A stretch of 64,000 nucleotides of DNA. It comes from an uncultured bacterium (lineage in GTDB: Bacteria > Patescibacteriota > Minisyncoccia > UBA6257 > 2-01-FULL-56-20). The notes beneath the pieces are model-generated. The model worked only from the letters and a program-made list of their open reading frames with translations. It made no database searches and was not told the origin of the DNA. The stretch is from assembly GCA_963807165.1 (NCBI GenBank), contig CAWDZM010000001.1, positions 577,471 through 641,470 of the forward strand, in the 5' to 3' direction. Below are positions 18,430-37,329 of this stretch, piece by piece (position 1 is the stretch's first letter; every line of letters begins with the position of its first letter). The translations under genes and the position numbers were made by a program.

Positions 18430-18564
18430 ATGTCGTTCACATACAATCCAAAGAAAAAGAAGCGCAAGACCACTCATGGTTTTTTGGTGCGCCAGGCGAC
18501 TCCTACTGGCCGCCGCGTCCTTTCCCGTCGCCGCGCGAAGGGAAGGAAGAAGTTAGCCGTATAA
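18430..18564 (+). CDS. rpmH: 50S ribosomal protein L34
   Basis: Manual translation gives [44 protein letters not shown] (44 aa). Absent from the ORF track because it is under 60 aa. Confidence 0.85.
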
Positions 18565-18583
18565 ACGGCCATTGGCCATCCCT

Positions 18584-18900
18584 ATGGCAGTTAAAATAAC
18601 GCGCCTTCCATCAGATCAATTCCGCGCCCGGGGATATAAAACAACCCCCACTCCGTTTTTTTTATTAAAGACAAAAAAGAACACCGTTCTCCGCGCCCGG
18701 ATTGGGATCGTGGTGGGAGGTCGGTTCATAAGACCGCGGTAAAGAGAAATTTTTGGAAGCGTCAGGCGCGTGCCACGCTCGCGGCGCATGCGATCATCGG
18801 GCATGATATCCTTATGATAGTTTCGCCCAACGCAAATCGCCTCACTAAAAAACAATTTAAAGACGAGATGCTGAAAACGCTCAACAAAACCCAATTTTAA
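18584..18900 (+). CDS. rnpA: RNase P protein component, apparently frameshifted near 18701-18735
   Basis: The N-terminus MAVKITRLPSDQF...FFLLKTKKNTVLRARIGIVVGGR is in one frame. The RnpA basic motif SVHKTAVKRNFWKRQAR and the C-terminus ...KTLNKTQF* are in the +1 frame. Conserved rpmH-rnpA-yidC order. Confidence 0.7.
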
Positions 18901-18909
18901 TAAAAAATA

Positions 18910-19623
18910 ATGGTCTATCTCTACCAGCAGATATTTTATCGGCCGATCCTCAATCTCCTTATTTATTTTTATAATACGATCGCCTATCACGATCTCGGCA
19001 TCGCCATTATTTTAGTCACGCTTTTTATCCGGCTCATCCTCTATCCATTTTTTCACACCGGCGCGAAACAGCAGATGCTCATGCAGCGCATCCAGCCGAA
19101 GATAAAAGAGATCCAGACAAAACATAAAGACGATCGTGACCAACAGGCGAAGGCGTTGATGGAATTATATAAAGAGCACGGCGTGAATCCATTCTCCGGT
19201 ATATTATTACTTATCATTCAAATCCCAATCCTCCTCACATTCTATTGGGTGATCCGTTCCGGCATCGGCACTGCGCAGATGACGGGATTATATTCTTTTA
19301 TTACGACGCCACACAGCATCAATACCATTTTCCTCGGCTTTATCGATCTCGCCAAGCCGAATTTTATTCTTATCATCGCCGCCGCCCTCGCGCAATATTT
19401 TCAAGCAAAGCTTGCCATCTACCGCGCGCCGTCCAATACTGGTCCACTCTCGCAAGCAGAAAAGATCGCGCGTCAGATGGTATTCGTTGGCCCACTCATT
19501 ACTATCCTCGTATTCTATAATTTTCCCGCGGCACTCGGCCTTTATTGGCTGATGAGCTCTCTCTTCTCTGCCGTCCAGCAATATTTTGTTAATAAGCATT
19601 TAATAAAAAAGTACGGCGTATAG
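18910..19623 (+). CDS. yidC: membrane protein insertase YidC (short form)
   Basis: 237 aa, multi-TM, conserved YidC/Oxa1 core; follows rnpA. Confidence 0.8.
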   Translation: MVYLYQQIFYRPILNLLIYFYNTIAYHDLGIAIILVTLFIRLILYPFFHTGAKQQMLMQRIQPKIKEIQTKHKDDRDQQAKALMELYKEHGVNPFSGILLLIIQIPILLTFYWVIRSGIGTAQMTGLYSFITTPHSINTIFLGFIDLAKPNFILIIAAALAQYFQAKLAIYRAPSNTGPLSQAEKIARQMVFVGPLITILVFYNFPAALGLYWLMSSLFSAVQQYFVNKHLIKKYGV

Positions 19624-19683: not shown

Positions 19684-20118
19684 ATGGATAACTGGGAATC
19701 ATATATTAAAAAAACATTAGACCTTATCGGGTTTAAGGACTATCACTTGGAAATAAAGATAGACGAGCGCCGGGGCTCAGTTTTTATCTACGAGGACGTG
19801 GAGATGGTAAAAGAGAACCTTCCCGCAATTGTGGATGCGGTGAACCATATTCTCCAGATGGTGGCAAAGAAGAATCAGGCCGAGGCGATCTTCCTCGACG
19901 TGAATAATTATCGCCATGACCGTGAGCGATTAATCGCGGAGCTCGCCCGCGCGGCAGCCAAAAAAGCATCAAGCACAAAAACGGAAGTTTCGCTCCCTGC
20001 GATGAATTCTTACGAGCGCCGATTGGTGCACATGGAGCTCGCCGTGCATCCGGAGGTAAAAACAGAAAGTGCTGGCGAAGGAAAAGAACGATACGTTGTT
20101 ATAAAACCCATCGCATAA
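19684..20118 (+). CDS. khpB: Jag/KhpB-family RNA-binding protein (R3H domain)
   Basis: C-terminal R3H-like NSYERRLVHMELA...TESAGEG; position after yidC. Confidence 0.75.
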   Translation: MDNWESYIKKTLDLIGFKDYHLEIKIDERRGSVFIYEDVEMVKENLPAIVDAVNHILQMVAKKNQAEAIFLDVNNYRHDRERLIAELARAAAKKASSTKTEVSLPAMNSYERRLVHMELAVHPEVKTESAGEGKERYVVIKPIA

Positions 20119-20162: not shown

Positions 20163-21500
20163 CTAATGAGAGAACGTTAGCCCGTACAACTTTTGATCGT
20201 AACGGTTGATAAAGAACAACGCGTCATTGAAAAATTTCATATCAGAGGTGTCCATGTTCTGCGTGGCATCACTCCAGAGGGTTTGCTCCGCGCCCGTCGC
20301 GGTGTTGATCTTATAAATATCATCAGAGGTAAAGAGCGCCATCGTTTCGTAATCGTCCGGCAGGTGTGCGGCAGAGAAGCCGCTCGAACTGCGCGGAATG
20401 CCGCAGTAGAGCGCAAGATATGGAGTCGATGTTGCCGCGGCAGGCAAGATCTTCTTTGTTTTCGTGGTGGAGGTAGCGCTACTCGCAGAGCTTGTCGCGG
20501 TCGACGTTGCTATCGGCATTAACTCCGTATTAAAGGCGCACTTTGATGGCAATGTGAGGAAACTAAGCGGTTCGGTTGGCAGATTTCCATACATCGCCTG
20601 GAGTTGGAGAGTATTCCCCGCCTGGCCCGATGGATTATTAAAGAACGTAAGCCCGTATGGGATGGCCGGATTGGCACTCCATATTCCCTCCGCGCCCGGA
20701 ACCTCATAGATGAGCGGGGTGAGCGCGCTTGTTAGAGAGTTGAACGCCCATACTGAGCCTGCGTTCTGCGTAGTTGGCTTGTCGGATAAAATGAACTCGT
20801 TCTGCGTGGGCCACGCAAGTGTGAGATCGTTCGCGTTAAGGGAAATCAACACTCTGGGCGCGGCTTTTAAATTCACGGCGTTCATGATCGCGAGCGTGAG
20901 CTTACCACTGCTCGTTACCGCAAGATATGCGATCAAATAATTACTGATTGGCGACCATTGCGGAGAGAGCATCCCTTGGGGGAGCGCTACCCACGCGTTC
21001 GTGGCGACATCATAGAGCGCCGCCTGGGGGTTTGTGGGGTCGCCGTAACTCACTATAATTTTCTTCCCGTCATGAGAGAAGCTGGCCGAAATGATTTCGT
21101 CAATCGTTGATGAGTTGACCGTGACGGATTGGCCGTTCGCGATAGTAACAATCGAGCCGTTTGGTTCGATGGCGATGATATTATTTTGCGGATCAATAAA
21201 ATAATCCAAGATCGGATCTTGTGAGAGTACGCCGAAGTTTGATACTGTCGCTTGGCCGCCGCTCACCGTCGTGGCGGTGCTACTCCCTGTCGTCGTCGGC
21301 AGGCCGAGCGTGCCGACGCTGTTCGCCGTGCCGGAATTATTCCCCTGCGTGCCCGTTGTCGGGAGCGAGCCACCGGTGGTGGTCGTGCCAGTCACGCTGG
21401 GCGCCGTGCCTGCAGAATTGTTCTTTATAAGGAAAAGAATAAGTATCGCGAGCGCCGCTGCGACGATGATGCCGATGATGATGTAAATATAGCGTTTCAT
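20163..21500 (-). CDS. membrane-anchored protein with Thr/Gly-rich linker and a beta-propeller-like repeat domain; last gene of the T4SS-like locus
   Basis: N-terminal TM IIIGIIVAAALAILILFLI, then a TGTTTTGGSLPTTGT linker, then a beta-rich domain. Confidence 0.5.
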   Translation of the reverse strand: MKRYIYIIIGIIVAAALAILILFLIKNNSAGTAPSVTGTTTTGGSLPTTGTQGNNSGTANSVGTLGLPTTTGSSTATTVSGGQATVSNFGVLSQDPILDYFIDPQNNIIAIEPNGSIVTIANGQSVTVNSSTIDEIISASFSHDGKKIIVSYGDPTNPQAALYDVATNAWVALPQGMLSPQWSPISNYLIAYLAVTSSGKLTLAIMNAVNLKAAPRVLISLNANDLTLAWPTQNEFILSDKPTTQNAGSVWAFNSLTSALTPLIYEVPGAEGIWSANPAIPYGLTFFNNPSGQAGNTLQLQAMYGNLPTEPLSFLTLPSKCAFNTELMPIATSTATSSASSATSTTKTKKILPAAATSTPYLALYCGIPRSSSGFSAAHLPDDYETMALFTSDDIYKINTATGAEQTLWSDATQNMDTSDMKFFNDALFFINRYDQKLYGLTFSH

Positions 21501-21518
21501 AATAATATTTTTATATTA

Positions 21519-21995
21519 TCAACAACCAACATAAATTACTTGGAGTCCACTAGCGGGAATGCAAGGATTGGGATTTGTTAACGGGCCGTTCGGCGAAGCT
21601 GGCGCAGGGGTTGGAGTGGTAGCGGGAGCTGATGCCTGAGTGTTCACTGGCGGCAGGGTCGTTGGTAAACTAAGTGTCGTTAGCTGTGGATTTATTACAT
21701 GTAAAACGAAATACGCTCCTACTAATAATAATAACCCAAGCAGTGCCGCCTCAATCCATTCTTTTGCATCACTTTGTCCAGAAGGGTTTCCTGCTGATGC
21801 CATATACCTAACGCCGCCGTATACCACAACACCGAATGCGAGTATGCCGCCGATCATCAACGCAAACTGGTAGAAGCCGCCGACGAATGCGCCGGGGTTA
21901 GAGCCAGAATTCGGAGCCATACCTGGGACGCTTGTGCTGATAGTAATCGCCGTAGCGTGCGCGACCGAAATGAATGGAAATGAGGCGCCTATCAT
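21519..21995 (-). CDS. VirB2/TrbC-like pilin candidate (two hydrophobic helices in a hairpin, Pro/Thr-rich C-terminal tail)
   Basis: AFVGGFYQFALMIGGILAFGVVVYGGV and EAALLGLLLLVGAYFVL helices separated by a short loop; the topology is typical of T4SS pilins. Overlaps the upstream gene's stop. Confidence 0.4.
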   Translation of the reverse strand: MIGASFPFISVAHATAITISTSVPGMAPNSGSNPGAFVGGFYQFALMIGGILAFGVVVYGGVRYMASAGNPSGQSDAKEWIEAALLGLLLLVGAYFVLHVINPQLTTLSLPTTLPPVNTQASAPATTPTPAPASPNGPLTNPNPCIPASGLQVIYVGC

Positions 21996-22729
21996 AATTG
22001 GCTCTCGTAGGTTAGATTTGCCGACGCGGTGGCGATAGTCGAATCGTTGGGATTTTCAAGGCTGAGCGACACACTCACACTGGTTCCTGACTGTGTCCCT
22101 TGCGGGAGCGTTATTTGTGCCGCCTCGGGATTCTCAGCGTTGGATCCGTTCTGGCCATTTACCGACCATGTATAGGAAAGTTTAGTGAGATCAGAAACAT
22201 TGAAAAAATATGGGATTGCTTGCACCGAAACCGGATTTTGTGAGAACTGTCCGTTCGGATACGGCGCGTAGATTACCGCCTCTGGCAGCACCATCGGGAT
22301 GGTTATCGCATGGACAAGGTACGCACCGTTATAGTTTGGAATCGTCACGCGTAGGTTGATGGTGTTCGGCGCGTCGCCAATAGGAGGAAAGGTCACGTGC
22401 TGTACACCAACACCACCACCGACAAGGTTATCATTAACATACCAATAAATGGTCTGTTGGCTGAGGTCGAGCACTTTACCCTGCGGGGAGATCAATTCAA
22501 GCGATGCGGTGATGTTCGAGCCGTAGGTAGGGAGCGCTTTGCCCTGATAAAAAGAAGGGATATAGCTCCCAGTCGTTTTCCAGGTGATGAGAAACCACGG
22601 AGAAGAGGCGGTCGCTGCCGCCGTTTGCGCGCGGGCCGTCGGTGCAATGGAAATAAAAACGCCGGACGCAAGCACGATAGCAAAAAAACCCACAAGCGCC
22701 GATTTTTTAACGATAGTTCGCGATGACAT
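21992..22729 (-). CDS. secreted/anchored hypothetical protein
   Basis: N-terminal signal/anchor ALVGFFAIVLASGVFISIAPTARA; beta-rich. Confidence 0.45.
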   Translation of the reverse strand: MSSRTIVKKSALVGFFAIVLASGVFISIAPTARAQTAAATASSPWFLITWKTTGSYIPSFYQGKALPTYGSNITASLELISPQGKVLDLSQQTIYWYVNDNLVGGGVGVQHVTFPPIGDAPNTINLRVTIPNYNGAYLVHAITIPMVLPEAVIYAPYPNGQFSQNPVSVQAIPYFFNVSDLTKLSYTWSVNGQNGSNAENPEAAQITLPQGTQSGTSVSVSLSLENPNDSTIATASANLTYESQL

Positions 22730-22773
22730 TACTTTCCTTTAGTATACCAAATATGCCGCGATAGCGGATGGAG

Positions 22774-23622
22774 CTATGCCGCCTTGTCGGATTCTTCTTC
22801 CTCGTCACCATTTTCACTTTCATCATTCCCTTCGTCTTTATTTTGGTTATTAGTGCGGTCGGCGATGTCGAAGACTTTTTGAACTTGCCTTTTAGCTTTA
22901 TCAGCTTTCTTTTCTTCGGGCTCCTCGTTCTGTTCCGATCCTTGTTCTTCTGGGGATTCACGGAACTCATCTTCTTGTGGCAGGGTAATATCCTCCTCAA
23001 GATTTTCCATTGGATTCCTTTCTTCGCGGGTAAGGTCGAGGCCTTCTTGGGTTTCACCTGCTTCTGCAGCGGTTTCCGCTCCCTGTGTTCCAGCTTCTAT
23101 CCCTTGAGCTCCCGCTTCGGCGGTGGCCCCTCCGGCTTCGGCTCCTGCTGCGCCAACCGCTCCGGTGCTTTCAGCCACCGCCCCGGCCGCCTCCACCCCT
23201 TCTGCGGCAGTCGTCGCAACTTCAGCGCCCTCGGCGACGACCGCGCCGGCTTCGAGCGCTTCGCCGGCGCCCGCGGTGCCAATTGCGACAGCTTGGATAG
23301 CGACCTGTTCAACAACAAACTCACCAATTTTACTCGAGGTGACAACCATCAGAATTAATCCCAGCATAAGTGGTAGTGGTAATATCCAAAATAAAAGAAG
23401 GATAGATTTAGGAAGCCACCCGCCGGTTTTTCCCCAAAAGTAAAAAAGAATAATAAGACCAAAGCCCCAATGTGCCATAAACACAAACATAGCTATCGCC
23501 AATCCTATGCCCGGGATCGCCAACCCGATCAATCCTAATAGGGTGAGGTCGGCAAAAAAAGCCATGATAAAAAAAACCAAAGTCCCTGGCTCGAACAAAT
23601 CTATCTTACCTTCTTCATTCAT
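22774..23622 (-). CDS. polytopic membrane protein with a long Ala/Gly/Glu-rich acidic C-terminal tail; VirB6/TrbL-like role possible
   Basis: 3-4 TM helices in the first ~110 aa, then a low-complexity AGEA... tail and a DEEEESD end. Immediately downstream of the VirB4 gene. Confidence 0.4.
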   Translation of the reverse strand: MNEEGKIDLFEPGTLVFFIMAFFADLTLLGLIGLAIPGIGLAIAMFVFMAHWGFGLIILFYFWGKTGGWLPKSILLLFWILPLPLMLGLILMVVTSSKIGEFVVEQVAIQAVAIGTAGAGEALEAGAVVAEGAEVATTAAEGVEAAGAVAESTGAVGAAGAEAGGATAEAGAQGIEAGTQGAETAAEAGETQEGLDLTREERNPMENLEEDITLPQEDEFRESPEEQGSEQNEEPEEKKADKAKRQVQKVFDIADRTNNQNKDEGNDESENGDEEEESDKAA

Positions 23623-23634
23623 ACACGAAGAAAA

Positions 23635-25371
23635 TTATAATGCGTTTTTTTCCTCCAGTAGCTGCTCGGGGTTCGTGGTGATGATCTGATCCTCGTAATA
23701 TGACGGCACGATCTGGATGGCGACATGGCGCTTGCCGGCGAAGAAAATGCCGGTGCCGACCTCCGCGCCGAGGAGGAAGTTCTTTTCCGCTTCGGTAAGG
23801 TCGAACGCCTTTGCAACGATGTCGATCGTTGCCGGGGCTTGCTTGAGCAATAATTGCAAAGAAGAATTAGTGACGATCGGACGTCCGTAGGGCGATCGCA
23901 AGAAATCTTCCACATCCTGTGTGATTGTGGTGACTCCTAAATAATATTTACGTGCGCGCTTGACGAGGCCGAAGAGGAACGTTGCACTGTCTTCGTTCTT
24001 CATCATGATCCATGCCTCGTCAATAAACAGCAATCGCTTTGCGAGCTTGGCGCGGATAAGGTTCCAAATAAAGTTGAGCACGACGAACATGCCGAGCGGG
24101 CGGAGCTCTTCTTCAAGGTCGCGGATAGAGAAAACAATCAGCCGATTATTAACGTCGATGTTGGTGGGCTGGTTTAAGAATCCCGCGAAGCTGCCCTTGG
24201 TATATTTATAGAGTTTTTCCGCGAGATCACGGCCACCCTCCAGATTACGCAGGATCGTTTCTAAGTCACCGAGCAGGGGCGGCTCCTTGCCAACGAAGTC
24301 CGTGTCGGCGACGATCTCGCGCGAGGCGTACGTCTCTGTGATCGCGCGATCAAGTAAAGAATCTTCCTCCGGCGAAAGTTTTCCAAGCATCAACTTGAGC
24401 AAGCTTGCGAGGTTTACGATATGCGAGCGCAGAACATCCGACGGCGTTTCGCCTTCCGGCACCGGCGGAATATCGAACGGATTGATGTGCTCGTGCGATG
24501 ATAGCGAGATGTTGAACATGCTTCCGGCAAACGTATCTGCCAGGCGGCCATATTCGTTTTCAGGGTCGATGACGATTACCATCTCAATGCCCGCCATGAG
24601 TGAGCGCAGGATCTCAAGCTTCGTGGTGTACGATTTGCCGGAGCCGGATTTTGCAAAGACCACTTCGTTCGCATTTTCCAAAGAGAAGCGATCAAAGATG
24701 ACGAGGTTGCTGTTGTGCAGGTTGATGCCGTACATGATCCCCTGATTGGAGGAAAGATCCTCGGAGACGAACGGGAAGAATGACGAGATCGGGCTCGTGT
24801 TCATCGGCGAATAAATTTGTAGCTTATCGTTGTTGATCGGCAAAATAGAAGACAACCCTTCGAGCTGTTCAAAGAGCGCGGGTTTAAGGTAGATCAGCTT
24901 CGCCTCCATCATGGTGACGAGCTTGCTCTCCAGCCGCGCAAGTTCTTCCATCGTGTCGGAATAGATCGTGATGTAGACGCCCGTATTGAAAAGTTTTTCC
25001 TCCGACTGCTGGAGTGAGTCGCGTAGATTTTCGACATCGTTCACGGCAGTTTCCAAAACAGGATTTCGCACCAGCCCTTTCTCCTGCTCCTCGTTCATTT
25101 GCGATTCGAGCTGGCCAGCTTTCTTGCGCAGGTTCTTGAGCGCGCTGCCAGTATCGATCGGGTTGATAAAAATAGAAATGTCGAAAAGGTTCGGCAGGTT
25201 GATGAGCGGCTCGAACCAGCCGGTCGAAAGATAGCGCGGATAGGAAAAAACAAAAAATGTCTTTGCCAGCTTGTCGCCAATTTTCAAATAATTTGGAAAA
25301 ACCTCCGCTCCGGCGGGAGCGATCATCTTCCGTACGTTATCGAAATTATTTTCTTGTGGTTGGTCGGGCAT
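23635..25371 (-). CDS. virB4: VirB4/TraC/PrgJ-family T4SS ATPase, C-terminal 578 aa
   Basis: IAPAGAEVFPNYLKIGDKLAKTFFVFSYPR entry motif, Walker A VVFAKSGSGKSYTT, Walker B RLLFIDEAW. Confidence 0.8.
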   Translation of the reverse strand: MPDQPQENNFDNVRKMIAPAGAEVFPNYLKIGDKLAKTFFVFSYPRYLSTGWFEPLINLPNLFDISIFINPIDTGSALKNLRKKAGQLESQMNEEQEKGLVRNPVLETAVNDVENLRDSLQQSEEKLFNTGVYITIYSDTMEELARLESKLVTMMEAKLIYLKPALFEQLEGLSSILPINNDKLQIYSPMNTSPISSFFPFVSEDLSSNQGIMYGINLHNSNLVIFDRFSLENANEVVFAKSGSGKSYTTKLEILRSLMAGIEMVIVIDPENEYGRLADTFAGSMFNISLSSHEHINPFDIPPVPEGETPSDVLRSHIVNLASLLKLMLGKLSPEEDSLLDRAITETYASREIVADTDFVGKEPPLLGDLETILRNLEGGRDLAEKLYKYTKGSFAGFLNQPTNIDVNNRLIVFSIRDLEEELRPLGMFVVLNFIWNLIRAKLAKRLLFIDEAWIMMKNEDSATFLFGLVKRARKYYLGVTTITQDVEDFLRSPYGRPIVTNSSLQLLLKQAPATIDIVAKAFDLTEAEKNFLLGAEVGTGIFFAGKRHVAIQIVPSYYEDQIITTNPEQLLEEKNAL

Positions 25372-25391
25372 GGGATTTATAAATGGCGTCG

Positions 25392-26102
25392 CTATATCTT
25401 GCGTTCCACTGGCGCGTTTTTACGTTCGACCGTTTGCGGATTATAGAAGTTATAAAAGAGCTCGATGAGCTGTTCATCTTCCAACACGGTTGCTTCGAGG
25501 CCAATGTTTAAAAGGCCGCTCGTCACCTGCGCAGTGCGCTGGCCGAGTTGCGCAAGGTTCTCGTCGAGCATCTTTGCATATTCCGCGTCGCGCTGAGCGG
25601 TTTCCGCCGGATCCTCTTTTTTTTTTCCGCCAAAGAGCGCCATCACGCCGGAGACGCTTTTCGTCGCGCTCGGCAGCATGGACGCCGGATAGAACGAAAC
25701 GACCACCAGAAAAACTTTCTCCATAATAGCGTTCTTCTCCACAAAACCCTGAACGAATTTACTGTATTCATCGATCTGATTTTGTAGGATGGGAGATTGC
25801 TCGGTCTCTTTGCGCACCGTCAGCGTTTCTATATATTTATCAATATTCACCTTGCGCGAATGGATAAGGATTTGCAGGGGAAAGTCGATGCTGTTCAAAA
25901 ATGTCTGATATCCCTGCGTGATGATGTTCTGCTCCATCTCCGATTTTAATGAAAAATTAACGCCGCCTACCATGATGATCTGGCGGAAACTGCCGTCTTT
26001 CACAATGACGGTATTTTTCTTTATCTCTTTTATATCAACAAGATCGAGGGAGTTTCCCGCATCCTGCTTGTTTAGGACTGCCATACTCTTATTTTCGCAC
26101 AA
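25392..26102 (-). CDS. virB4: VirB4-family ATPase N-terminal domain, a separate ORF in another frame (split gene or frameshift)
   Basis: VIVKDGSFRQIIMVGGVNFSLKSEMEQ... resembles the VirB4/PrgJ N-terminal domain. It ends 20 nt before the C-terminal ORF, in a different frame. Confidence 0.6.
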   Translation of the reverse strand: MCENKSMAVLNKQDAGNSLDLVDIKEIKKNTVIVKDGSFRQIIMVGGVNFSLKSEMEQNIITQGYQTFLNSIDFPLQILIHSRKVNIDKYIETLTVRKETEQSPILQNQIDEYSKFVQGFVEKNAIMEKVFLVVVSFYPASMLPSATKSVSGVMALFGGKKKEDPAETAQRDAEYAKMLDENLAQLGQRTAQVTSGLLNIGLEATVLEDEQLIELFYNFYNPQTVERKNAPVERKI

Positions 26103-26116
26103 ATTACCCGCAAATC

Positions 26117-26638
26117 CTAGCGATAATCCACGCGCCGCGCCGCCTCGCGCTCGCCCGTCTCGCGCTGGAATATCTGATAACGCTCCGTCATCTTCTTTTC
26201 CACAAATTGACTGGCGGATTGAACCTTGCCGCCCGCCGGCGTGCCCGTCTGCAAATTTTCCCAGCTTTTATGCAGTGAATTTCCCTGCGCGATGGCCTGA
26301 ATGGGTGGTAACTCCCGCACGGCAGCAGCAGGCGCCGCGTGTTGTTGGGCCATCACCGGATGCTCCGGCTTCCATACATACATCTGCGGTTTCCAGTAGA
26401 AGTTAAGGGCGGATGTGGCGACCTTCATAAGCGGCCGGCCATTGACCTTAATAAAAGAGAGTGCGAGCGCGCCGCCGATCAGAATGAGCGCTACGATGGC
26501 GAACAGCCATGTTTGCAAAATAAAATAGCAGATGCCGCTCACGAGCGCGGCAACGCCAACATATGCGAACTGTCGGATTGAGAATGGCCCGACAATCTTG
26601 TCCTCCGTCTCAATAAATTGGGGAACTTGGTACTGCAT
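26117..26638 (-). CDS. small 2-TM membrane protein, PrgI/VirB3-like by position and topology
   Basis: QVPQFIETEDKIVGPFSIRQFAYVG followed by two TM helices; directly upstream of virB4. Confidence 0.4.
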   Translation of the reverse strand: MQYQVPQFIETEDKIVGPFSIRQFAYVGVAALVSGICYFILQTWLFAIVALILIGGALALSFIKVNGRPLMKVATSALNFYWKPQMYVWKPEHPVMAQQHAAPAAAVRELPPIQAIAQGNSLHKSWENLQTGTPAGGKVQSASQFVEKKMTERYQIFQRETGEREAARRVDYR

Positions 26639-26679
26639 ACCTTTTATTGTAAGCCGCGCGGGCCGTTAAAGGAAATCTT

Positions 26680-27560
<881 letters not shown>

Positions 27561-28232
27561 TAAGGTTTGCTATTCCGCTAAGTTTCTCTTCGGGGATATT
27601 ATTTTGGTCAGATATTTTTTGTAACTGTTGAGCATATGCATTGAAAATAAAATAAGCAAAAAATTAACGCAACGTTTTGGTGTGTATGTCTGTGGGAGTT
27701 GGAGTGCTGGAAAAATTTAAGTGCAACGGATATGCTAAAAAGAAAATGTATCAATAAGGGTTGAACTTCATTTTTAGCCCAAGCAATTCTTGTCTCGTAT
27801 TCCCAGAGTATAGGGAATAGAAAAAAGATGAAATTTTTCTATGAATAAAGATAAATTGGATAGGAGAATGTCACTCATCTTTGATGGGGAGGCGCTTAAA
27901 AAAAAAACATACCTGAGTGAGTCTCATGTTTTATTGATCCAGTTCCCGAATAAAAATGCCCACGGAACGACGGAATCCCTTCTATTATTCCCACCCAATG
28001 GACGCAGGACCCAATTTTAAGATCATAGTGAAAAATGTGTGCTTGTAAATAAAATTATCCGTGATCGAATTTTTTGACTTTGCAAAGCATCCCAAACATC
28101 CTCATCCCATAAAGGACATACGGCACTAAATGAAGTTACTATTTCTTCTAATGTTTGATAACTTTATGTATTATTAATTGGCTTACCATTCCTATCGAAT
28201 GTCACCGAACTTCGTAGCAATATCCTGACCAC

Positions 28233-28878
28233 TCACATGAGCAATGATGACAAAAGTATGTGCGCCTGAGCCGTATTTCTAGCATTATCCCCTTCGGCAT
28301 TCGTCTGCGCACTCGTGGCAAGTCCTTCATTTTCGGCAGTTTTGCTCTCATCCTCTTCTATCTTTTCTAGCGTTGCAAGAATTTGTTCGTCGTCTGCACT
28401 GATTTTTCCTTCCTTATCTCTCTTCACCTTCGTATTCTGCCGCAGATTTTGCTTTACCTTCCTCCACGGTGTGTTCATTTTCTCCATCAATTTCTTCCAG
28501 TGTCTTGAGCTTGTTTGCTCTTTCCCCACATCATCCCAGGGAACTCTTTTATTTTTTGCCCAATTGGTGCATCCTCTGCGATCCCTTTTTGCTTGGCTCC
28601 ATCAGCCTACGCATTTCGTTTGTAAGATTTGGAGGGAGAGTTCGTAGCGCCGCTTCAGCAGATGCCTTAGCTTTTGAATCTTTACCTTTTAGTGCTTTAT
28701 CAAAAGTTGATAAAATAGCAAGTTTGCCTGCCGTATCCTGCGTCCCAAATCTTCGAGCCTGCTCTTGAGGGATTTTTTCCCAAGTTCTTTTTGTATTGTC
28801 GCCGACTTTTGGTTCTCTTGTAATGCACCAACGATCCACAATGCATTCGCCGCCAAGCATAGGGGCGAAGTAAACCAC
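28233..28878 (-). pseudogene. Lys/Glu-rich hypothetical gene split into two ORFs (28549..28878 and 28233..28529) in an AT-rich segment
   Basis: Two adjacent same-strand ORFs in different frames; no recognisable domain. Confidence 0.3.
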
Positions 28879-29033
28879 TTATAAGAAGGTTGCGACCAAC
28901 ACCTGCATCTGTAAGGCCTGAGTTACTTACCTATCACAATCATCTCAGCATAAGATCCAGCCCTCTGTGCCCCTGCTCGCGTCTTCTTTCCTCGTCACCC
29001 GCTACCGCCTTGCTCGCCGTGGTCGCGCCATCT

Positions 29034-30003
29034 TCAGCAGTACGGTACGCTGTTCCGGCAAGCGAATTCCAGAACGTCAGCCCCGTGGCCGGTGGAGGCC
29101 AACAAAAAGAATTTCATCCGCAGCTTGTTGGAGTATTCCGCTTCAGGCCAGTTTCTTGATAGAATGAGTAGCAAGATACTCCGGTAGCAGCACCCGTAGG
29201 GAAACTCTTCCGGCTTGAGTAAGATGCGTGCCACCGGTACCCGGTGCAACCCAGATACCCACTGTTCATATTTGTCGCAGTAATGAACGCGAGGTCGTAA
29301 AGAAGAGTGCGAGTGGCAGAAAAATATCCATTTAAGCAAAAGTATTCCACCACTTGCCAAAGCTATTATCAAATTTGGAAATACGTAAGTAAGCCATGCG
29401 AGAGGGAGGATAATAAGCAAAACCAGCGTAAGGATCGCGAATGATAAGCAAGGTCAAACAGAGGAAAGTGAAAGCGATACGACCGGAAAAAATCACATCA
29501 AAAAACATTGCCATCGTCATTTGCCAAAGAGTATTTGCAGATTGTTGCGCTGCGGACGCATTCAGCGCCGCTGCTGCATTCGCCGCCGCCGCGTTACAAA
29601 ATGGATAACGCCCGTGTTCCCAGTGGCGGCTGCGTTATTAAGGAGCGTGACTATCTGCTCCAGCGATCTGCGCCGATTGATTTACTTGCGATGCCCGGCA
29701 CCATCAGCTGTGGAGCGAATGCTTGCACCATTGTTTCGGCGTATCCTTCATATCCAGCCACGCTCATTGAGCCCGGACTTGTGGCGTTGACGAAATAAGT
29801 ACTCGAATGCTGGCGAAGCTGACGATCGGTGCGGTAATGACAAGGCCAAAGTTCACTAAAATCGCCATAAAGACCAATTTCCATAAAAGCTGTTTCATTC
29901 CATAAGTTTGATTCCGAAGGATGGTGGCGATCGCGATAATGATAATACCGAGCACAAACCCAAGATTTGCGATTGCGAGCGAAACAGAAAATCCAGTTTG
30001 CAT
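29034..30003 (-). pseudogene. decayed polytopic membrane-protein gene(s), VirB6/TrbL-like and pilin-like TM hairpins, broken into at least 4 frames
   Basis: ORFs 29764..30003, 29651..29884, 29332..29520 and 29034..29420 each carry strongly hydrophobic helices (for example GFSVSLAIANLGFVLGIIIIAIATIL) in consecutive, different frames. Confidence 0.35.
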
Positions 30004-30440
30004 TCGGGGGAATTAAAAATATTATCGTTAAATTGAAGCCCTAACTTAACAAGCCAAGCGCCGATACTGACAACAACTCCCATATCGCCATTTACGATGA
30101 GTGATACATAAAAAACAGAGCAAGTTGCGGGATTTAAGTGAATCATAGAGGCACGGGGTTTGTTGAGGGGCTGTTCCGGCGCCTGCCGGTGGATCCGACT
30201 ACCGGTGTTGCTGCGCGAGCCAGTTGAGCCTGCCGCAGGAGTGGTAGCGGCAGGAATGGATGTCCCGGGCAGAGAGAGTGTTTGTAGTGGAACGGTGGGT
30301 ATAGTAAATCCGGAACCACCCCCCGTCGTTTCTTGTGCGTGTGCAATATTAATCTTCGTCGCCATTCCCGCCGGCGCGAAAAGCAAAAACAGCGCCGCAC
30401 CAATGACTAATATTTTTTTGTAATGGTTTTTATATGCCAT
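29895..30440 (-). CDS. signal-peptide protein with a Thr/Gly-rich linker; its C-terminal half looks out of frame and may continue into the 29764..30003 TM hairpin (second VirB2-like pilin?)
   Basis: MAYKNHYKKILVIGAALFLLFAPAGMATKINIAHAQETTGGGSGF... is a clear signal peptide; the downstream frame has paired TM helices. Confidence 0.35.
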   Translation of the reverse strand: MAYKNHYKKILVIGAALFLLFAPAGMATKINIAHAQETTGGGSGFTIPTVPLQTLSLPGTSIPAATTPAAGSTGSRSNTGSRIHRQAPEQPLNKPRASMIHLNPATCSVFYVSLIVNGDMGVVVSIGAWLVKLGLQFNDNIFNSPECKLDFLFRSQSQILGLCSVLSLSRSPPSFGIKLME

Positions 30441-31224
30441 AAAGAACGCACGTTATGTTGCACGGTAACGGTACAGATCGACGGGGATCACTTGCTGAAT
30501 CGGTAAGGGTAACGTTATACGTCCCCGGGGTGGCGAAGATGTCGGAGAAGAACGCCCCAGTACCCGTTACCCCGTTGGAATCGGACCAGGAATAAGTGGG
30601 CGGATTGCCATTTACGTCAAACGTGCCGCCAGTGGCGGAAATGGAGGTCGGGGAAGTGCCGGAGGCATTCGTGCTACTAGCAAGAGCCATAGTGCTTGTG
30701 GTGTTGAGATAAGAAGTGCCATTGCCAGCCGTTGGGGAGGGGATGGTTTGTGATGATGGATTACATGCGAGCGGGATCGAGGAAACAGTTCCGGCGGTAG
30801 CGCTGGTGCTACTAGCGAGACCTGCCAGATTTGCAGGGGGCGGAGTCGCTCCGGCTGTGATACTCGAGCCATTATTAAGAGAGCTAAGACTCTGATTTAC
30901 TAACTGATTCGCTGCGTTGACTGCGGTACTTGCCAAGCTCGTCATAAGAGAATTAAGTACCGCATTTAATACTCCAGTGATATCATTCGCTGCCGCAACT
31001 TGTTGCGGGGTTGCATTGATGGCGCCTTGGAAAACAAACCCGGTAGCGGCGGCAGGAGTAGTGACGGTAGGCTGAGAGCCATTTGCACAGAGACCGTTAT
31101 TAGATTCCGTGACAGGAACCATCCCTTGACTGCATGTCCCAGCCGCAGGCATTAAGTAATCATTTGTATCGCCGCCTTCGCACATGAAGCGAGTCCCATT
31201 AGGATTACTGCCGTCGCTACACAC
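30430..31224 (-). CDS. secreted Ser/Thr/Asn-rich, Cys-containing hypothetical protein
   Basis: 264 aa; low-complexity S/T/N/G composition with 8 Cys; overlaps neighbouring genes (operon). Confidence 0.45.
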   Translation of the reverse strand: MCSDGSNPNGTRFMCEGGDTNDYLMPAAGTCSQGMVPVTESNNGLCANGSQPTVTTPAAATGFVFQGAINATPQQVAAANDITGVLNAVLNSLMTSLASTAVNAANQLVNQSLSSLNNGSSITAGATPPPANLAGLASSTSATAGTVSSIPLACNPSSQTIPSPTAGNGTSYLNTTSTMALASSTNASGTSPTSISATGGTFDVNGNPPTYSWSDSNGVTGTGAFFSDIFATPGTYNVTLTDSASDPRRSVPLPCNITCVLYGI

Positions 31225-31259
31225 TTGGTCTCCACTGAGCCCATTAGATGTCTGAGCTT

Positions 31260-32435
31260 TTAATTGGCTTGCTCCTTGTTGAGTTGATAAGCAAATTGAA
31301 CTGTTTGAGCATTAAAGAATAGATTCCCATAGGGATTCCCGCTAGGAAGCGTGCTTGCGCCAAATGCAATGAATCCACCATTCTTAAAATTATTATAGAA
31401 TTGCTGGAAACTGTTTGAGCCGAGTGCCGCCGCGAATTGATTTGCGCAAGCATTACTCCCGGGCTTATAAAAAGCATTAAGGGTAATTTTTTCTTGTCCT
31501 ATAAAGGCGGGGAAGGTACAGCCGTTTGGATCGAATAAGGTGTTAATAGAGTTGAGTGCGCTTGTCTGGGCGGCATCCACTAATTGAGTCCCCCAATTAG
31601 TGATGAATCGCGGAGCGCCACTGCCATTTATCCATGCAACCACTTCTCGTTGGATGATCGCGATGAGTGTATTTCTAAGTATTTGTAGTAAGGTGTTTTT
31701 AAGTAACGCCTCAAGCCTCTGCCCCATATTTTGTACATGGATACTGGAGATAAGGGAAAATAAGGAGGCGCTGGTCCCGACTTGTTGGGCGTGAGCAGTC
31801 AGGTTAAGTTGCAGATTAGCGTTTTGCTCAGGTAGCTGAATACTATCAAGGGCTGAGTTCTGTTGGACCACCGCAGGTATTTGTACGGTGGTATATGGTG
31901 TTTCTAATATAGGGTCACTCACTATCAATTGTGCATGAGCTTGTTGTATGCCGAATGTGCCATTAAGTAGAGATAGAAGCATCCCTTGGGGGCTTGGTTG
32001 GGTTTGTTGAAGAGATAAGGTTTCATTCGTAAGGCTCTGCGCCTGATTTAAGAAATTTGTTTCAACGGAATCGAATCTGGCATCTTCCACTTGAAAAACA
32101 ATAGTCGCCCTTACCGGGTCGGTTTGAGCGAGATTGTAGAGAGGGATGAGATTTTTTTCATACAACAGATCGGCCACTAAACTTTTTTGATATGCCACGG
32201 CTGGTGTCGGAATTTTTAATGCAGTGACATCCTGAAGCGCACTGGTCACCTGCGACTCCAAATAATTTAGATCGCCCACGCTGGTATCGCCAGTCTGGTC
32301 GCTCATGATACTTTGCACCTGCGTATCGCTGTCAAGGTGGCTGTTCATAATATCATTCAATGCGTTGCTATAATTAGTCAGCGCTTCGGCGCTTGAAGTC
32401 ACAACAACTGTCAAGGGGATTGATCGCAACCTCAA
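31260..32435 (-). CDS. Gln/Asn/Leu-rich hypothetical protein (possible extracellular structural component)
   Basis: 391 aa; its ATG overlaps the upstream stop (ATGA coupling). Confidence 0.45.
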   Translation of the reverse strand: MRLRSIPLTVVVTSSAEALTNYSNALNDIMNSHLDSDTQVQSIMSDQTGDTSVGDLNYLESQVTSALQDVTALKIPTPAVAYQKSLVADLLYEKNLIPLYNLAQTDPVRATIVFQVEDARFDSVETNFLNQAQSLTNETLSLQQTQPSPQGMLLSLLNGTFGIQQAHAQLIVSDPILETPYTTVQIPAVVQQNSALDSIQLPEQNANLQLNLTAHAQQVGTSASLFSLISSIHVQNMGQRLEALLKNTLLQILRNTLIAIIQREVVAWINGSGAPRFITNWGTQLVDAAQTSALNSINTLFDPNGCTFPAFIGQEKITLNAFYKPGSNACANQFAAALGSNSFQQFYNNFKNGGFIAFGASTLPSGNPYGNLFFNAQTVQFAYQLNKEQAN

Positions 32436-32689
32436 GATCCCAGTCGGGAACCGGAGTTTTCAGTGCTCGTGGCATCGCCAATATTTGTGGCAATAGCATT
32501 CACGTCCGGAGAATTGAATGTCGGATTTCCATTGGCATCAGTCCCAGTCGGACCATTAGGATTAGCTGCAACCACGCCATTTACGAATTTTGCCGCAACG
32601 TCATCAGTAAGGTTACTCGGATTGGTGGAGCTGACGAACATTGTTGATGACGTAAGCTCCGGCGCAAACGCAGCGGCAACTTGCTCCAC
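32432..32689 (-). CDS. small hypothetical protein with GTG start; first gene of the coupled set
   Basis: 85 aa; the in-frame upstream region has an Arg6 run and no ATG. Confidence 0.35.
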   Translation of the reverse strand: MEQVAAAFAPELTSSTMFVSSTNPSNLTDDVAAKFVNGVVAANPNGPTGTDANGNPTFNSPDVNAIATNIGDATSTENSGSRLGS

Positions 32690-32973
32690 TTGAGCCTGGG
32701 TGGGAATGAACGCATTCGTGCCATCCGCCCCCGCGATGGCTGCGCTAACGCCATTGATTGATCGCTGTGCACTGTTTCGTCTCCGCCGCCGACGTAATAT
32801 TTGTGAGCGAAAAGATCAGCCCAGAACAGACCGCGGCGGTCGCCAAGATAAGGAATCCAGTGATCAATTTCTTGACATCTATCATTAACTTGAATTATAA
32901 CCCCGAAATAAAGCGCACGCTATGGGGTTATCCCCAGTTAATCCAGAAAATCTGCGCGCGCGATGGCGACACC

Positions 32974-33996
32974 TTATCCCTTTTTTGAAACAAGCGCCAG
33001 AACGAGCCCGACGACCCTGTTTTTGTCTTTCGGATCGCTTTCTGCCACAAGGATGGTGAGTGCGGTAAGCGCAGGCGGTGTAAGGCGCGCGGTGTCCAAG
33101 ATCTTCGCTTGGCGCAAAAACCAGACGAACGCATATGCCCCGCTCCGCTTATTTCCATCCACGAACGGATGGTTTTTCACCATAAAATACAGTAGATGAG
33201 CTGCCTTTTCCTCCACGCTCCCATAGAGCTCCTTTCCACCAAAAGATTGCATGACATTTCCCACGATACCGGCAACATTCCCCCGCTCACGTTCGGCGCC
33301 AAAATGTTCTGTAGCCTCGCCTTTTTGTACGAGCGCCAATTTTAACTTCGCTAAGCTGCTTTTAAGTTTCTCCGCAGTGATTGCCACACGTTTTCTTATG
33401 GCACCCTTGGTGGGGAGGGCATCTTTGTCATACGCATCGAGCGAAAGCCATGTACTGGCAAAGAGATTTATGAGCTCAAGGATGCTTCCCGTATCGATCG
33501 CAGCGGCAGCGGGCAAAAGTTTCTTGACCGCGTCAACGGCTTCCAAAAATTGCCCATAATTTTTGGCTATGCGTTGCTTATTGATGGCGTATCCCTCAAC
33601 GATATATTGGTGGAGCGTTTTCGTGGCCCAGCGGCGGAATTCTATTGCACGCTGAGAATTCGCACGATAGCCAACCGCAAGGATAATATCAAGATTGTAG
33701 AATTGAACCTGATACGTTTTTCCATCTTCGGCAGTATGTGCAAAATTTGCACATACTGAAGATCCATCCAGTTCTTTGTCTTTCAAAATGTTACGGATGT
33801 GCTTTGTCGCCACAGAACGTTCAAGCTCGAATAAATCTGCTATCTGCGCTTGTGTCGCCCAGATGGTTTGTTTTTGAACATCCTTTCTTAACTCAAGAGC
33901 TCCGGATTTCCCCTGATAAATAACGACATCATTTTTTATATCTTTCTTTTTCATTCTTGTAGTCCTTATGTTAATATTTCTCAGTTGGATACTCAA
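32974..33996 (-). CDS. RhuM-family N-terminal domain fused to a Fic/Doc domain (HPFVDGNKR motif); putative toxin/AMPylator
   Basis: N-terminal ...IWATQAQIADLFELERSVATKHIRNI... (RhuM-like) and C-terminal HPFVDGNKRSGAYAFVWFL (Fic motif). Probable start MKKKDIKNDVV at ~33953. Confidence 0.7.
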   Translation of the reverse strand: MSIQLRNINIRTTRMKKKDIKNDVVIYQGKSGALELRKDVQKQTIWATQAQIADLFELERSVATKHIRNILKDKELDGSSVCANFAHTAEDGKTYQVQFYNLDIILAVGYRANSQRAIEFRRWATKTLHQYIVEGYAINKQRIAKNYGQFLEAVDAVKKLLPAAAAIDTGSILELINLFASTWLSLDAYDKDALPTKGAIRKRVAITAEKLKSSLAKLKLALVQKGEATEHFGAERERGNVAGIVGNVMQSFGGKELYGSVEEKAAHLLYFMVKNHPFVDGNKRSGAYAFVWFLRQAKILDTARLTPPALTALTILVAESDPKDKNRVVGLVLALVSKKG

Positions 33997-34813
33997 TAAA
34001 TATATTTTTTGCTATAGCAATGATTTGTCCGATATTGAGGTTTTGCGGCCGCGCGACCGGATCAATGCCGATCTTTTTGAGCTGCTCTATAATATCGCCC
34101 TTCGCGCGAGTTTCGCTCGCTGATGATGACAGGTTGTTAAGGAGTGTTTTTCTTGGCTGGGCGAAAATGCCGCGTACCGCTCTATAATAGAGCGCCGCGT
34201 CGATAGCGGGGGCTCCATCCAGGATGGCTGGCGTCGTATCCGGTGTCGCTATTGCGTAGAATTCTTTATTTTCCAGCAAAATGACTGCCGAATCCACTTC
34301 CGGCGGCGGAGAAAAATCTTTGCGTGGCACGTGCGCGATGATCGTGGCGTTCGCCCAGAACTGTACGCTTGCGGCGAGGCGGTTCATCTCCGGCGGCGCG
34401 GCGCAGATACGCTCCGCTACTTCTTTTTGAATGAGCAACGCCACGCGCTTCGGTTTCTGATCGAGCTCGCTTATCACGCGCAATAAATGCCCGGTAATAT
34501 AGTAGGGAATATTTCCAACGATCTTCGTCGCCGGAAATTTCGGCAACAGCTTCAGCGCGTCCCCTTCTATAATATTAATATTCACATCCGCATTCGTCGC
34601 GAGCGTTTTTAAATCTTCTATCAGCGCATGATCTTTTTCAATGCAAGTAATTTCGCAATGCTTGTTGTGTGCCGCCGCCGCGAGCGGCGTCGTGAGCTCG
34701 CCATGCCCGGGGCCGATCTCTATCACGCAATCGCCATCCTCGAGCGCGAGCGCCCCCACGATTTTTTCTAAGACAGCAGTGTTCCTCAAAAAGTGTTGTC
34801 CGAGTTTTTGCAT
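33971..34813 (-). CDS. rsmA: 16S rRNA (adenine1518/1519-N6)-dimethyltransferase RsmA/KsgA
   Basis: QHFLRNTAVLEKIV, SAM-binding VIEIGPGHGELT, 280 aa. Confidence 0.85.
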   Translation of the reverse strand: MQKLGQHFLRNTAVLEKIVGALALEDGDCVIEIGPGHGELTTPLAAAAHNKHCEITCIEKDHALIEDLKTLATNADVNINIIEGDALKLLPKFPATKIVGNIPYYITGHLLRVISELDQKPKRVALLIQKEVAERICAAPPEMNRLAASVQFWANATIIAHVPRKDFSPPPEVDSAVILLENKEFYAIATPDTTPAILDGAPAIDAALYYRAVRGIFAQPRKTLLNNLSSSASETRAKGDIIEQLKKIGIDPVARPQNLNIGQIIAIAKNIFIEYPTEKY

Positions 34814-36837: not shown

Positions 36838-37329
36838 GTGGCTGTTTTTTTGGCGATCGGCGGATTGTTGGGCGGACTCCTTTGGAGCTCCCTTTTTAGT
36901 TCAAATCCGGCGGGGATGGTCCAAGAGCGAAGAGTTCAGGGTGGACCGTCGCTTATCCCCCAGGCTCAGGGTGCGGAGATCGATAGTGCAGCCCTTATGC
37001 CGCAAAGCGCTCCGTTCCTTGCCTCTGCCAACACCAACGGGCAGGCCGTCCATTCTGCAGAAAATGTGGATGTACTCTATGGCCAGGCCGCCTTTAGGGA
37101 TGCCGAGCCAGTGCAAAAGACCAAGACGGTCGCGTTTGTCGCAAGTGGTACCCAGTCGACGCCCGCCTCCGGCATCATTTATCAGGTTGCCGCGGGAGAA
37201 ACTATCCAGTCCATCTCCACTTCATTCGGCGTGCCTATCAGTATGATAGTCGAATTTAACCCATCGGTAAATTTTTCATCACTCATCCCCGGTGTATCGA
37301 TCGTCATCCCCGGCCAAAACGACCTTTAG
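36838..37329 (+). CDS. LysM-domain membrane-anchored protein
   Basis: N-terminal TM, C-terminal LysM YQVAAGETIQSISTSFGVPISMIVEFNP. Confidence 0.7.
   Translation: MAVFLAIGGLLGGLLWSSLFSSNPAGMVQERRVQGGPSLIPQAQGAEIDSAALMPQSAPFLASANTNGQAVHSAENVDVLYGQAAFRDAEPVQKTKTVAFVASGTQSTPASGIIYQVAAGETIQSISTSFGVPISMIVEFNPSVNFSSLIPGVSIVIPGQNDL

Follow-up and report, generated by a model that had tools for sequence, protein, structure and literature searches.

The stretch of DNA analysed here (the window) comprises 64,000 nucleotides (nt) of an uncultured Minisyncoccia bacterium of the phylum Patescibacteriota (GenBank assembly GCA_963807165.1, contig CAWDZM010000001.1, positions 577,471 to 641,470) and carries on its minus strand an operon encoding a type IV secretion system (T4SS). 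A first-pass annotation of the same DNA had described a "minimal" set of seven co-directional, packed genes. All seven open reading frames (ORFs) were found at the coordinates given there, with gaps of 14, 20, 12, 44, -4 and 18 nt between them, but the set is not minimal: three more conserved genes of the same operon lie upstream, at 26666-32885, where they are broken by frame changes in the window. The locus is one 10-gene minus-strand operon running from 32885 to 20163 (Table 1). Its first, second and third genes are designated g737, g880 and g341 after the lengths of their orthologues in amino acids (aa). For comparison, 84 homologous loci were fetched and analysed by tblastn together with the window, giving 85 sequences; L001, the locus of a close relative, served as the reference for orthologue identity and for intact genes.

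Table 1. Features of the T4SS operon in the window, in the direction of transcription (TM, transmembrane)
Feature	Coordinates	Strand	Basis
g737 homologue, large surface protein	30487..32885	-	tblastn with the L001 737-aa protein
g880 homologue, polytopic membrane protein (low end approximate)	27760..30440	-	tblastn
g341 homologue	26666..27755	-	tblastn, covering 27668-26991
Homopolymer block G7-A29-T10 (plus-strand letters)	26704..26749	.	within the part of the g341 homologue that encodes its proline-rich end
PrgI/VirB3-like protein, 173 aa, two-TM hairpin (residues 23-41 and 45-63)	26117..26638	-	PF12666
TrsD-like ORF (N-ORF), 230 aa, VirB4 N-terminal part	25392..26084	-	NCBIfam profiles, orthologues
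VirB4 ATPase, 578 aa, without N-terminal module	23635..25371	-	NF045971, PDB 4AG5, Walker motifs
Acidic-tail membrane protein, 282 aa	22774..23622	-	hydropathy, composition
TM-anchored tandem Ig/FnIII-like protein, 245 aa	21992..22729	-	AlphaFold2, Foldseek
VirB2-like T4SS pilin, 158 aa	21519..21995	-	PF18895
TM-anchored β-propeller protein, 445 aa	20163..21500	-	AlphaFold2, Foldseek

At the core of the locus lies a VirB4 ATPase, which the first-pass annotation had read, correctly, as a protein with Walker A and B motifs divided over two ORFs. The 578-aa ORF matched the NCBIfam profile NF045971 (VirB4-like ATPase, CD1110 family) with 400.6 bits against a cutoff of 325, over profile positions 186-733 of 752, and contains a Walker A motif (AKSGSGKS) at 24631-24654 and a Walker B motif (LLFIDE) at 24016-24033. 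Its residues 211-565 matched PDB 4AG5, the C-terminal domain of Thermoanaerobacter VirB4, with an E value of 6.9e-40. The Pfam matches were P-loop_TraG, AAA_10 and DUF87, and TIGR00929 (VirB4_CagE) reached only 106 bits against a cutoff of 643. Confusion with FtsK or HerA had been named as the way in which the assignment might fail; the best matches were VirB4 families, with HerA/DUF87 appearing only as the shared P-loop. The TrsD-like ORF (N-ORF) lies directly upstream, 20 nt away, and covers positions 5-114 of the NF045971 profile and positions 19-192 of TIGR00929. It also matched the TrsD/TraD profile NF041427 (E 3e-6), and its L001 orthologue carries the TraC-like domain PF26593. The ORF itself stands as annotated, whereas its start was moved: orthologue alignment favours the ATG at 26084, which gives 230 aa, over the TTG at 26102. 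The split point falls inside the N-terminal half of VirB4, leaving ~230 aa in the N-ORF and ~210 aa ahead of the 4AG5-like domain in the ATPase ORF.

Two further components were assigned by family profiles that exceeded their gathering thresholds (GA), in agreement with the first-pass annotation. The PrgI/VirB3-like protein matched Pfam PF12666 (E 1.2e-10, 42.2 bits vs GA 27), and its gene stands directly upstream of virB4 in 78 of the 85 sequences. The pilin candidate, encoded three genes downstream of virB4 by an ORF whose start overlaps the upstream stop by 4 nt, matched the T4SS_pilin family PF18895 (E 1e-6, 29.2 bits vs GA 26.6), with a weak additional match to the Mbov_0395 pilin-like family. 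It consists of a short leader ending in AHA, hydrophobic helices at residues 44-62 and 83-101, and a C-terminal extension that is rich in Pro and Thr and contains two Cys; hydropathy shows the two-helix topology of VirB2.

The operon is embedded in conserved surroundings. Gene calls in related contigs gave the order UvrD - KsgA - ~737 aa - ~880 aa - ~341 aa - PrgI - VirB4-N - VirB4-C - ~264 aa - ~252 aa - T4SS_pilin - ~432 aa, with jag, yidC, rnpA, dnaA and dnaN coming after the last operon gene. By tblastn across the 85 sequences, the 10-gene order is collinear in nearly all loci with at least ~70% VirB4 identity, and the position between ksgA and jag-yidC-rnpA-dnaA-dnaN is kept across Paceibacteria. 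Since the same order recurs collinearly in dozens of independent genomes, it cannot be due to chance. In the window, dnaN (15672-16784), dnaA (16919-18270), yidC (18910-19623) and jag (19684-20118) flank the locus on one side, and a Fic/RhuM gene, ksgA (33971-34813) and uvrD on the other; the GC content of the locus is the same as that of its flanks, and the window is ordinary chromosome. Promoter-like sites between 19900 and 33200 were not enriched (15 vs 14.3 in shuffled sequences), and terminator-like sites in the same interval showed a modest excess (26 vs 16.9, standard deviation 4.5) that does not inform the operon boundaries. The Fic/RhuM gene just mentioned, at 32974-33996 on the minus strand between ksgA and the first T4SS gene, encodes a 340-aa RhuM-family/Fic-DOC protein with the motif HPFVDGNKRSG; in L001 and L002 no such gene intervenes and ksgA directly adjoins the T4SS operon.

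The three upstream genes were characterized mainly through their orthologues. Those of g737 have an N-terminal TM anchor, and C-terminal PKD or PKD_4 domains were found in 13 of 39 (best E 4e-10). A short, sub-threshold DUF4141 motif was present in 6 of the 39; searches of PDB and Pfam with g737 returned only these PKD domains and this motif. In conjugative transposons of Bacteroides, DUF4141 proteins are encoded between traG and traJ (PMC10434189); the motif gives no more than a weak lead. The g880 orthologues carry ~7 TM segments followed by a long hydrophilic C-terminal part, a layout like that of "extended VirB6" proteins. The L002 orthologue has a precomputed TrbL_3 match together with TrbL_4 (E 9e-5) and TrbL (E 1.7e-3), none of which reaches GA; TrbL-family matches occurred in 3 of 40 g880 orthologues, sub-threshold in every case, and a profile search of PDB returned nothing. 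We therefore treat g880 as a weak VirB6/TrbL-like candidate. The profile searches proposed as a check in the first-pass annotation held for PrgI, VirB4 and the pilin, whereas TrbL surfaced only sub-threshold in these few g880 orthologues. The product of g341 has a conserved N-terminal domain of ~130 aa, no TM segment and a proline-rich C-terminus ending in IVKDFL before the stop (IQKDFL in L006), with no match in Pfam or PDB. Its conserved 3' end, ...atcgtaaaagatttcctttaa, precedes the ATG of the PrgI gene by 27 nt, both in the window and in 6 of 7 relatives examined.

Downstream of virB4, the three remaining products have the topologies that the first-pass annotation gave them, and by their profiles they appear to belong to no known T4SS family; none of the three has a Pfam or NCBIfam family match. 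In the 282-aa protein, an N-terminal hydrophobic block at residues ~14-100 is combined with a 157-residue tail rich in E, A and G with a net charge of -32. Homologues of its gene were detected by tblastn in only 14 loci of the 85 sequences. The L001 counterpart (11749-12543) occupies the same position and has the same architecture, a TM block and an acidic low-complexity tail, in a different sequence. The gene after virB4 is so hypervariable that no similarity can be detected in it between close relatives whose VirB4 is 94% identical. The 245-aa protein, whose gene is conserved in 75 of the 85 sequences, was modelled by AlphaFold2 with a predicted local distance difference test score (pLDDT) of 83 as a helix at residues 5-22 followed by two Ig/FnIII-like β-sandwiches; Foldseek against PDB gave only generic tandem FnIII, Ig and BIg matches. 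This protein was considered as the missing VirB8 and rejected, the model being tandem Ig/FnIII-like with no VirB8/NTF2-like match. The AlphaFold2 model of the 445-aa protein (pLDDT 85; predicted template modelling score, pTM, 0.79) comprises a helix at residues 3-29, a disordered Ser/Thr/Gly linker at ~29-81 and a β-propeller at 85-444. Only generic propellers were retrieved from PDB by Foldseek (prolyl oligopeptidase, the clathrin terminal domain, WDR91 and TolB), and no specific function for the propeller emerged from these matches. Its gene is the last of the operon in 58 of the 85 sequences.

Identity to L001 differs strongly along the operon: 94% for the VirB4 ATPase ORF, 62-75% for the pilin, the Ig protein and the propeller, and 38-49% for g737, g880 and g341. 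Between close relatives, divergence is far quicker in the surface components than in the ATPase, as would fit host-facing parts.

No type IV coupling protein (T4CP; VirD4/TcpA), relaxase or VirB11 was detected among the 44 window ORFs scanned against Pfam, a set that left out UvrD fragments and several ORFs shorter than ~170 aa; in this scope the absence noted in the first-pass annotation was confirmed. No integrase was present among the scanned ORFs either, and no homologues of VirB5 or VirB7-10 were found. A PilB-type T2SSE ATPase with an MshEN domain is encoded at 9764-11440 on the minus strand, ~9 kb from the T4SS locus. It is a type IV pilus assembly ATPase and the only related ATPase among the scanned ORFs, and its location means that both surface-filament systems sit near the origin.

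The T4SS type found here was already described in 2025 for Patescibacteria (Quinonero-Coronel et al. 2025, PMC12102498), so that its identification is correct and not new. That study defined a Patescibacteria VirB4 clade related to MPF-FATA. The gene found most often beside virB4 encodes TrsD, which is remotely homologous to the VirB4 N-terminus and has been assigned no function. Also present are PrgI/VirB3, VirB6 in some cases, and VirB2-like pilins, PF18895 among them; relaxases hardly occur, T4CP is rarely adjacent and VirB8 is rare in the phylum. The Paceibacteria locus was reported close to dnaA, dnaN, rnpA and ksgA, and the whole clade was concluded to be non-conjugative (PMC12102498). 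The window agrees with this description in its MPF-FATA-related VirB4, upstream TrsD, PrgI/VirB3 and PF18895 pilin, in having no detected relaxase and no adjacent T4CP, and in its location by dnaA, dnaN, rnpA and ksgA; nothing essential differs. The CPR-type, non-conjugative reading of the first-pass annotation is in line with that account. The single pilin gene here contrasts with the pilin arrays of Saccharimonadia and Microgenomatia (PMC12102498). In Ca. Southlakia epibionticum, T4SS genes are essential for epibiotic growth, according to the accounts of Wang et al. 2023 given in PMC12102498, PMC11665869 and PMC12857230. As far as it is described in those accounts, that system shares with the window a chromosomal location, VirB3-, TrsD-, VirB4- and VirB6-like genes and VirB2-like pilins, and differs in belonging to the class Saccharimonadia, in an array of 6 pilins and in peptidase and lysozyme genes downstream of virB4. 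The role of the T4SS has been called "completely unknown", with effector delivery or nucleotide acquisition as proposals (PMC11665869, PMC12857230).

Comparison with better-known systems places the locus further. By family profile and nearest homologues, its VirB4 appears to be of the MPF-FATA-related monoderm type. It resembles the MPF-FATA systems (pCF10 Prg/Pcf, pGO1/pSK41 Trs/Tra and CTn2 CD1110) in that PrgI adjoins VirB4 and in its CD1110-family ATPase, at 30-36% identity; pGO1, too, encodes TrsD separately, as a protein homologous to the VirB4 N-terminus (PMC12102498). In contrast to these systems, which are without VirB2-type pilins (PMC12102498, PMC12857230), the locus has a pilin and a fixed chromosomal place. 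With VirB/D4 systems of the MPF-T type (Agrobacterium VirB and R388 Trw) it shares a VirB2-type pilin topology, a VirB3-like hairpin and a VirB4 with Walker motifs; it differs from them in that no VirB5, VirB7-10, VirB11 or VirD4 was found and in that the organism is inferred to be monoderm.

Taken together, it is highly probable that the window carries an origin-proximal chromosomal T4SS of the Patescibacteria type, belonging to Paceibacteria/Parcubacteria, and that this serves as a pilus-forming platform for host interaction, not for conjugation. The identity of the system is firm; its function is deduced from the missing genes and from the literature, which includes the essential T4SS genes of Ca. 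Southlakia epibionticum and a preprint account (bioRxiv 10.64898/2026.06.21.733656) of tubular structures, possibly T4SS pili, at a parasite-host interface. In the proposed mechanism, the TrsD-like module would dock the ATPase to the VirB3-like protein at the membrane, the weakly VirB6-like polytopic protein would form the membrane channel, and the ATPase would drive extraction of the pilin and its polymerization into a pilus or tube. Five lineage-specific proteins may construct the extracellular part that touches the host cell, or decorate it. The PKD-bearing giant, the acidic-tail membrane protein, the tandem-Ig protein and the β-propeller would be surface-anchored, whereas no TM segment is predicted for the fifth protein, g341. 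The machine would then mediate interaction with the host cell, by effector delivery or by uptake of host macromolecules, with no conjugative transfer of DNA.

Several points weigh against this assignment of function. Pilus formation is suggested only by the family of the pilin. The VirB6 candidate is weak, given its matches below Pfam thresholds in 3 of 40 orthologues and the empty profile search of PDB. Beyond the 64 kb, the genome could still encode a coupling protein; many Patescibacteria T4CP homologues lie far from virB4 (PMC12102498). Neither a VirB1-like nor a VirB8-like protein was detected in the locus or among the 44 scanned ORFs of the window, and no Pfam or NCBIfam match to a VirB8-like protein or PrgL was obtained, the two modelled bitopic proteins being tandem Ig-like and β-propeller. 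Finally, the three upstream T4SS genes are disrupted in the window, so that the machine could be defective in this genome.

Among the alternatives, the one that survives best, though we regard it as unlikely, is that the machine imports DNA, RNA or nucleotides from the host, working like H. pylori ComB or archaeal Ced, and so offsets missing nucleotide biosynthesis. The lack of a relaxase or T4CP among the scanned ORFs would suit an importer. A T4SS route of nucleotide acquisition has been proposed, competence being dispensable in S. epibionticum (PMC11665869), and the preprint cited above (bioRxiv 10.64898/2026.06.21.733656) links feeding on host RNA with the possible T4SS pili. A weak match to CedB points the same way; however, its score (33.9 bits vs a cutoff of 700), like that of CedD (14.5 vs 600), reflects only the shared P-loop, and, as noted above, no VirB7-10 homologues were found. 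Neither a nuclease nor a nucleic-acid-binding domain was detected in the locus, and sequence does not reveal the direction of transport. Import is moreover a variant of the host-interaction explanation, not a separate object. Also unlikely, and offered here only tentatively, is the proposal that the five family-less conserved proteins are new structural parts of a monoderm, pilus-bearing T4SS replacing VirB8, VirB1 and adhesin functions, and that the machine extracts host RNA, DNA or nucleotides and does not export substrates; the three-piece arrangement of VirB3, VirB4-N and VirB4 ATPase would then be a regulatory or assembly adaptation of the lineage.

Somewhat less probable still is that the locus is decaying in this genome, the three upstream genes being true pseudogenes and the T4SS non-functional. 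The g737 homologue is present as four collinear pieces in frames 3, 1, 3 and 2, with at least 3 frame changes. The g880 homologue lies in many fragments, with tblastn pieces at 30440-29937, 30018-29809 and 29526-29095 in different frames, and the g341 homologue has at least one frameshift plus the 46-nt homopolymer block. This block lies 66 nt upstream of the PrgI start, is absent from the equivalent place in all 7 relatives examined, and is either an assembly artefact or a hypervariable tract. The breaks are unevenly distributed, none falling in the seven downstream genes, as decay of the upstream part might produce. Essential or housekeeping genes of the window, however, are broken as well, dnaA and uvrD by single-base shifts: an A8 run (17640-17660) divides dnaA into two ORFs, and one A added there restores a 451-aa DnaA; uvrD is split by one shift into two overlapping ORFs at ~35705-35733; and rnpA (18292-18894 region) aligns with its orthologue only across ORF breaks. 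All three genes are intact in L001. Because dnaA and uvrD are broken in the window yet intact in L001, assembly indels are likely, and they offer the most economical cause of the broken upstream genes. The sequence comes from one contig of 726 kb, possibly a long-read assembly, and the upstream genes are the fastest-evolving, so strain mixtures would degrade their consensus.

A conjugative element, that is, an integrative and conjugative element or the remnant of an integrated plasmid that transfers DNA, is very improbable. It would account for a VirB4 of the CD1110 family of conjugative ATPases, whose closest plasmid homologues sit in conjugation clusters, but the scanned ORFs offer no relaxase, T4CP or integrase. 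The locus moreover has a fixed place between ksgA and jag/yidC/dnaA, collinear down to ~70% VirB4 identity, with a GC content equal to that of its flanks, and PMC12102498 concludes that the clade is non-conjugative. Close VirB4 homologues are all from metagenome-assembled genomes of Paceibacterota, Parcubacteria or Minisyncoccia. The nearest plasmid VirB4s are from monoderms of the Actinomycetota and Bacillota, at 35-36% identity for Embleya and Streptomyces and 30-35% for Pontibacillus, Clostridium and Bacillus. In both the Embleya and the C. perfringens plasmids, T4CP is encoded beside virB4, accompanied by a relaxase-like gene and an NlpC/P60 hydrolase in the former and by an SLT hydrolase in the latter. 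The MPF-FATA systems seen thus carry a T4CP and a relaxase-like gene or cell-wall hydrolase next to virB4, whereas the locus here has no DNA-processing genes.

The Embleya plasmid also bears on how the VirB4 modules are arranged. On this plasmid (NZ_CP108778.1; L085, 2350-3399), a 349-aa "PrgI family protein" is encoded directly before a shortened VirB4 of 643 aa, with a T4CP and a replication-relaxation protein also downstream of it. Residues 14-77 of the 349-aa protein aligned with the PrgI-like protein of the window (E 2e-7) and residues 138-249 with the N-ORF (E 1e-11); by these alignments it is a fusion of a PrgI module with a TrsD-like (VirB4 N-terminal) module. The NCBIfam family SCO6880 shows the same two-part pattern at low score. 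The modules are therefore found as PrgI followed by full VirB4 in Clostridium, as a PrgI-N fusion followed by VirB4ΔN on the actinobacterial plasmid, as PrgI, N and VirB4ΔN in the window and, rarely, as PrgI followed by a fused N-VirB4. The recurrence of the same three modules in several arrangements supports, by inference, the N-ORF as the coupler of the ATPase to the VirB3-like protein.

The division of VirB4 is a property of the lineage. Two separate ORFs were present in 78 of the 82 related loci in which both halves occur. The more than 100 homologues with 80-94% identity have a length of ~578 aa and span only the C-terminal 70% of a fused query; among the 120 best matches listed, only two, of 792-793 aa and with 69% identity, were full-length. 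When the N-ORF was searched against 1.84 billion cluster representatives, 1857 relatives were returned, and the best 150 of these are nearly all stand-alone proteins of 200-250 aa, with one fused VirB4 of 797 aa. Fused forms are rare (L002-4, from one species, L044 and P0371). The frame offset between the halves is 0, 1 or 2 and differs among genomes, and the spacer is anywhere between -8 and +163 nt long; without exception, the N-ORF closes with a true stop and the C-terminal ORF opens with ATG. Together, all three frame offsets, the variable spacer and the stop/ATG pair make a fixed slippery site impossible. These results indicate that VirB4 is a lineage-wide two-cistron protein, neither an artefact nor the product of a programmed frameshift. 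The notion of a single gene interrupted by a sequencing error or a programmed ribosomal frameshift, to which one A added to an A5 run lends some appeal by fusing the ORFs into an 822-aa frame, as do the homopolymer indels elsewhere in the window, can be dismissed in view of the same two ORFs in 78 independent assemblies and of the offsets, spacers, stops and conserved ATGs just described.

Spacers of 89-163 nt between the two cistrons occur in L027, L029, L040, L043 and L077 (at ~9880-10000 in the fully flanked loci). They carry a palindromic sequence resembling a small inserted repeat, for example ...ggatccccgcctgcgcggggatgacag..., and may be small inverted-repeat elements that landed between the halves. 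Five TrsD-like representatives (P0430, P0435, P0451, P0463 and P0482) are 320-480 aa long and have an N-terminal extension of 100-225 residues with no Pfam match; among 9 longer N-module representatives tested (300-480 aa), no PrgI module was found at E <= 1e-3.

Elsewhere in the window, a tRNA-Ile with anticodon UAU, which is uncommon in bacteria, was predicted at 48348-48420 on the plus strand. The minus strand also encodes a lamin-tail-domain (LTD) protein at 7071-7682 and, at 37326-38894, a ComM/YifB Mg-chelatase-like protein.

A large part of bacterial diversity consists of Patescibacteria, which are host-dependent, and genetic tests, made in one species, showed the T4SS to be essential (PMC11665869, PMC12857230). 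The window adds no new kind of system; it provides a clean Paceibacteria example with a defined 10-gene operon. To the earlier description it adds that the TrsD-like ORF and the shortened VirB4 make up one full-length VirB4, with rare fused orthologues and a PrgI-N fusion elsewhere. It further adds predicted folds, tandem Ig and β-propeller, for two genes left unassigned in PMC12102498, and the much faster divergence between close relatives of the components that would face the host than of the ATPase. The two-gene VirB4, the PrgI-N fusion and the accessory folds are targets for interaction, localization and cryo-electron tomography work, provided that a Paceibacteria co-culture becomes open to genetic manipulation.

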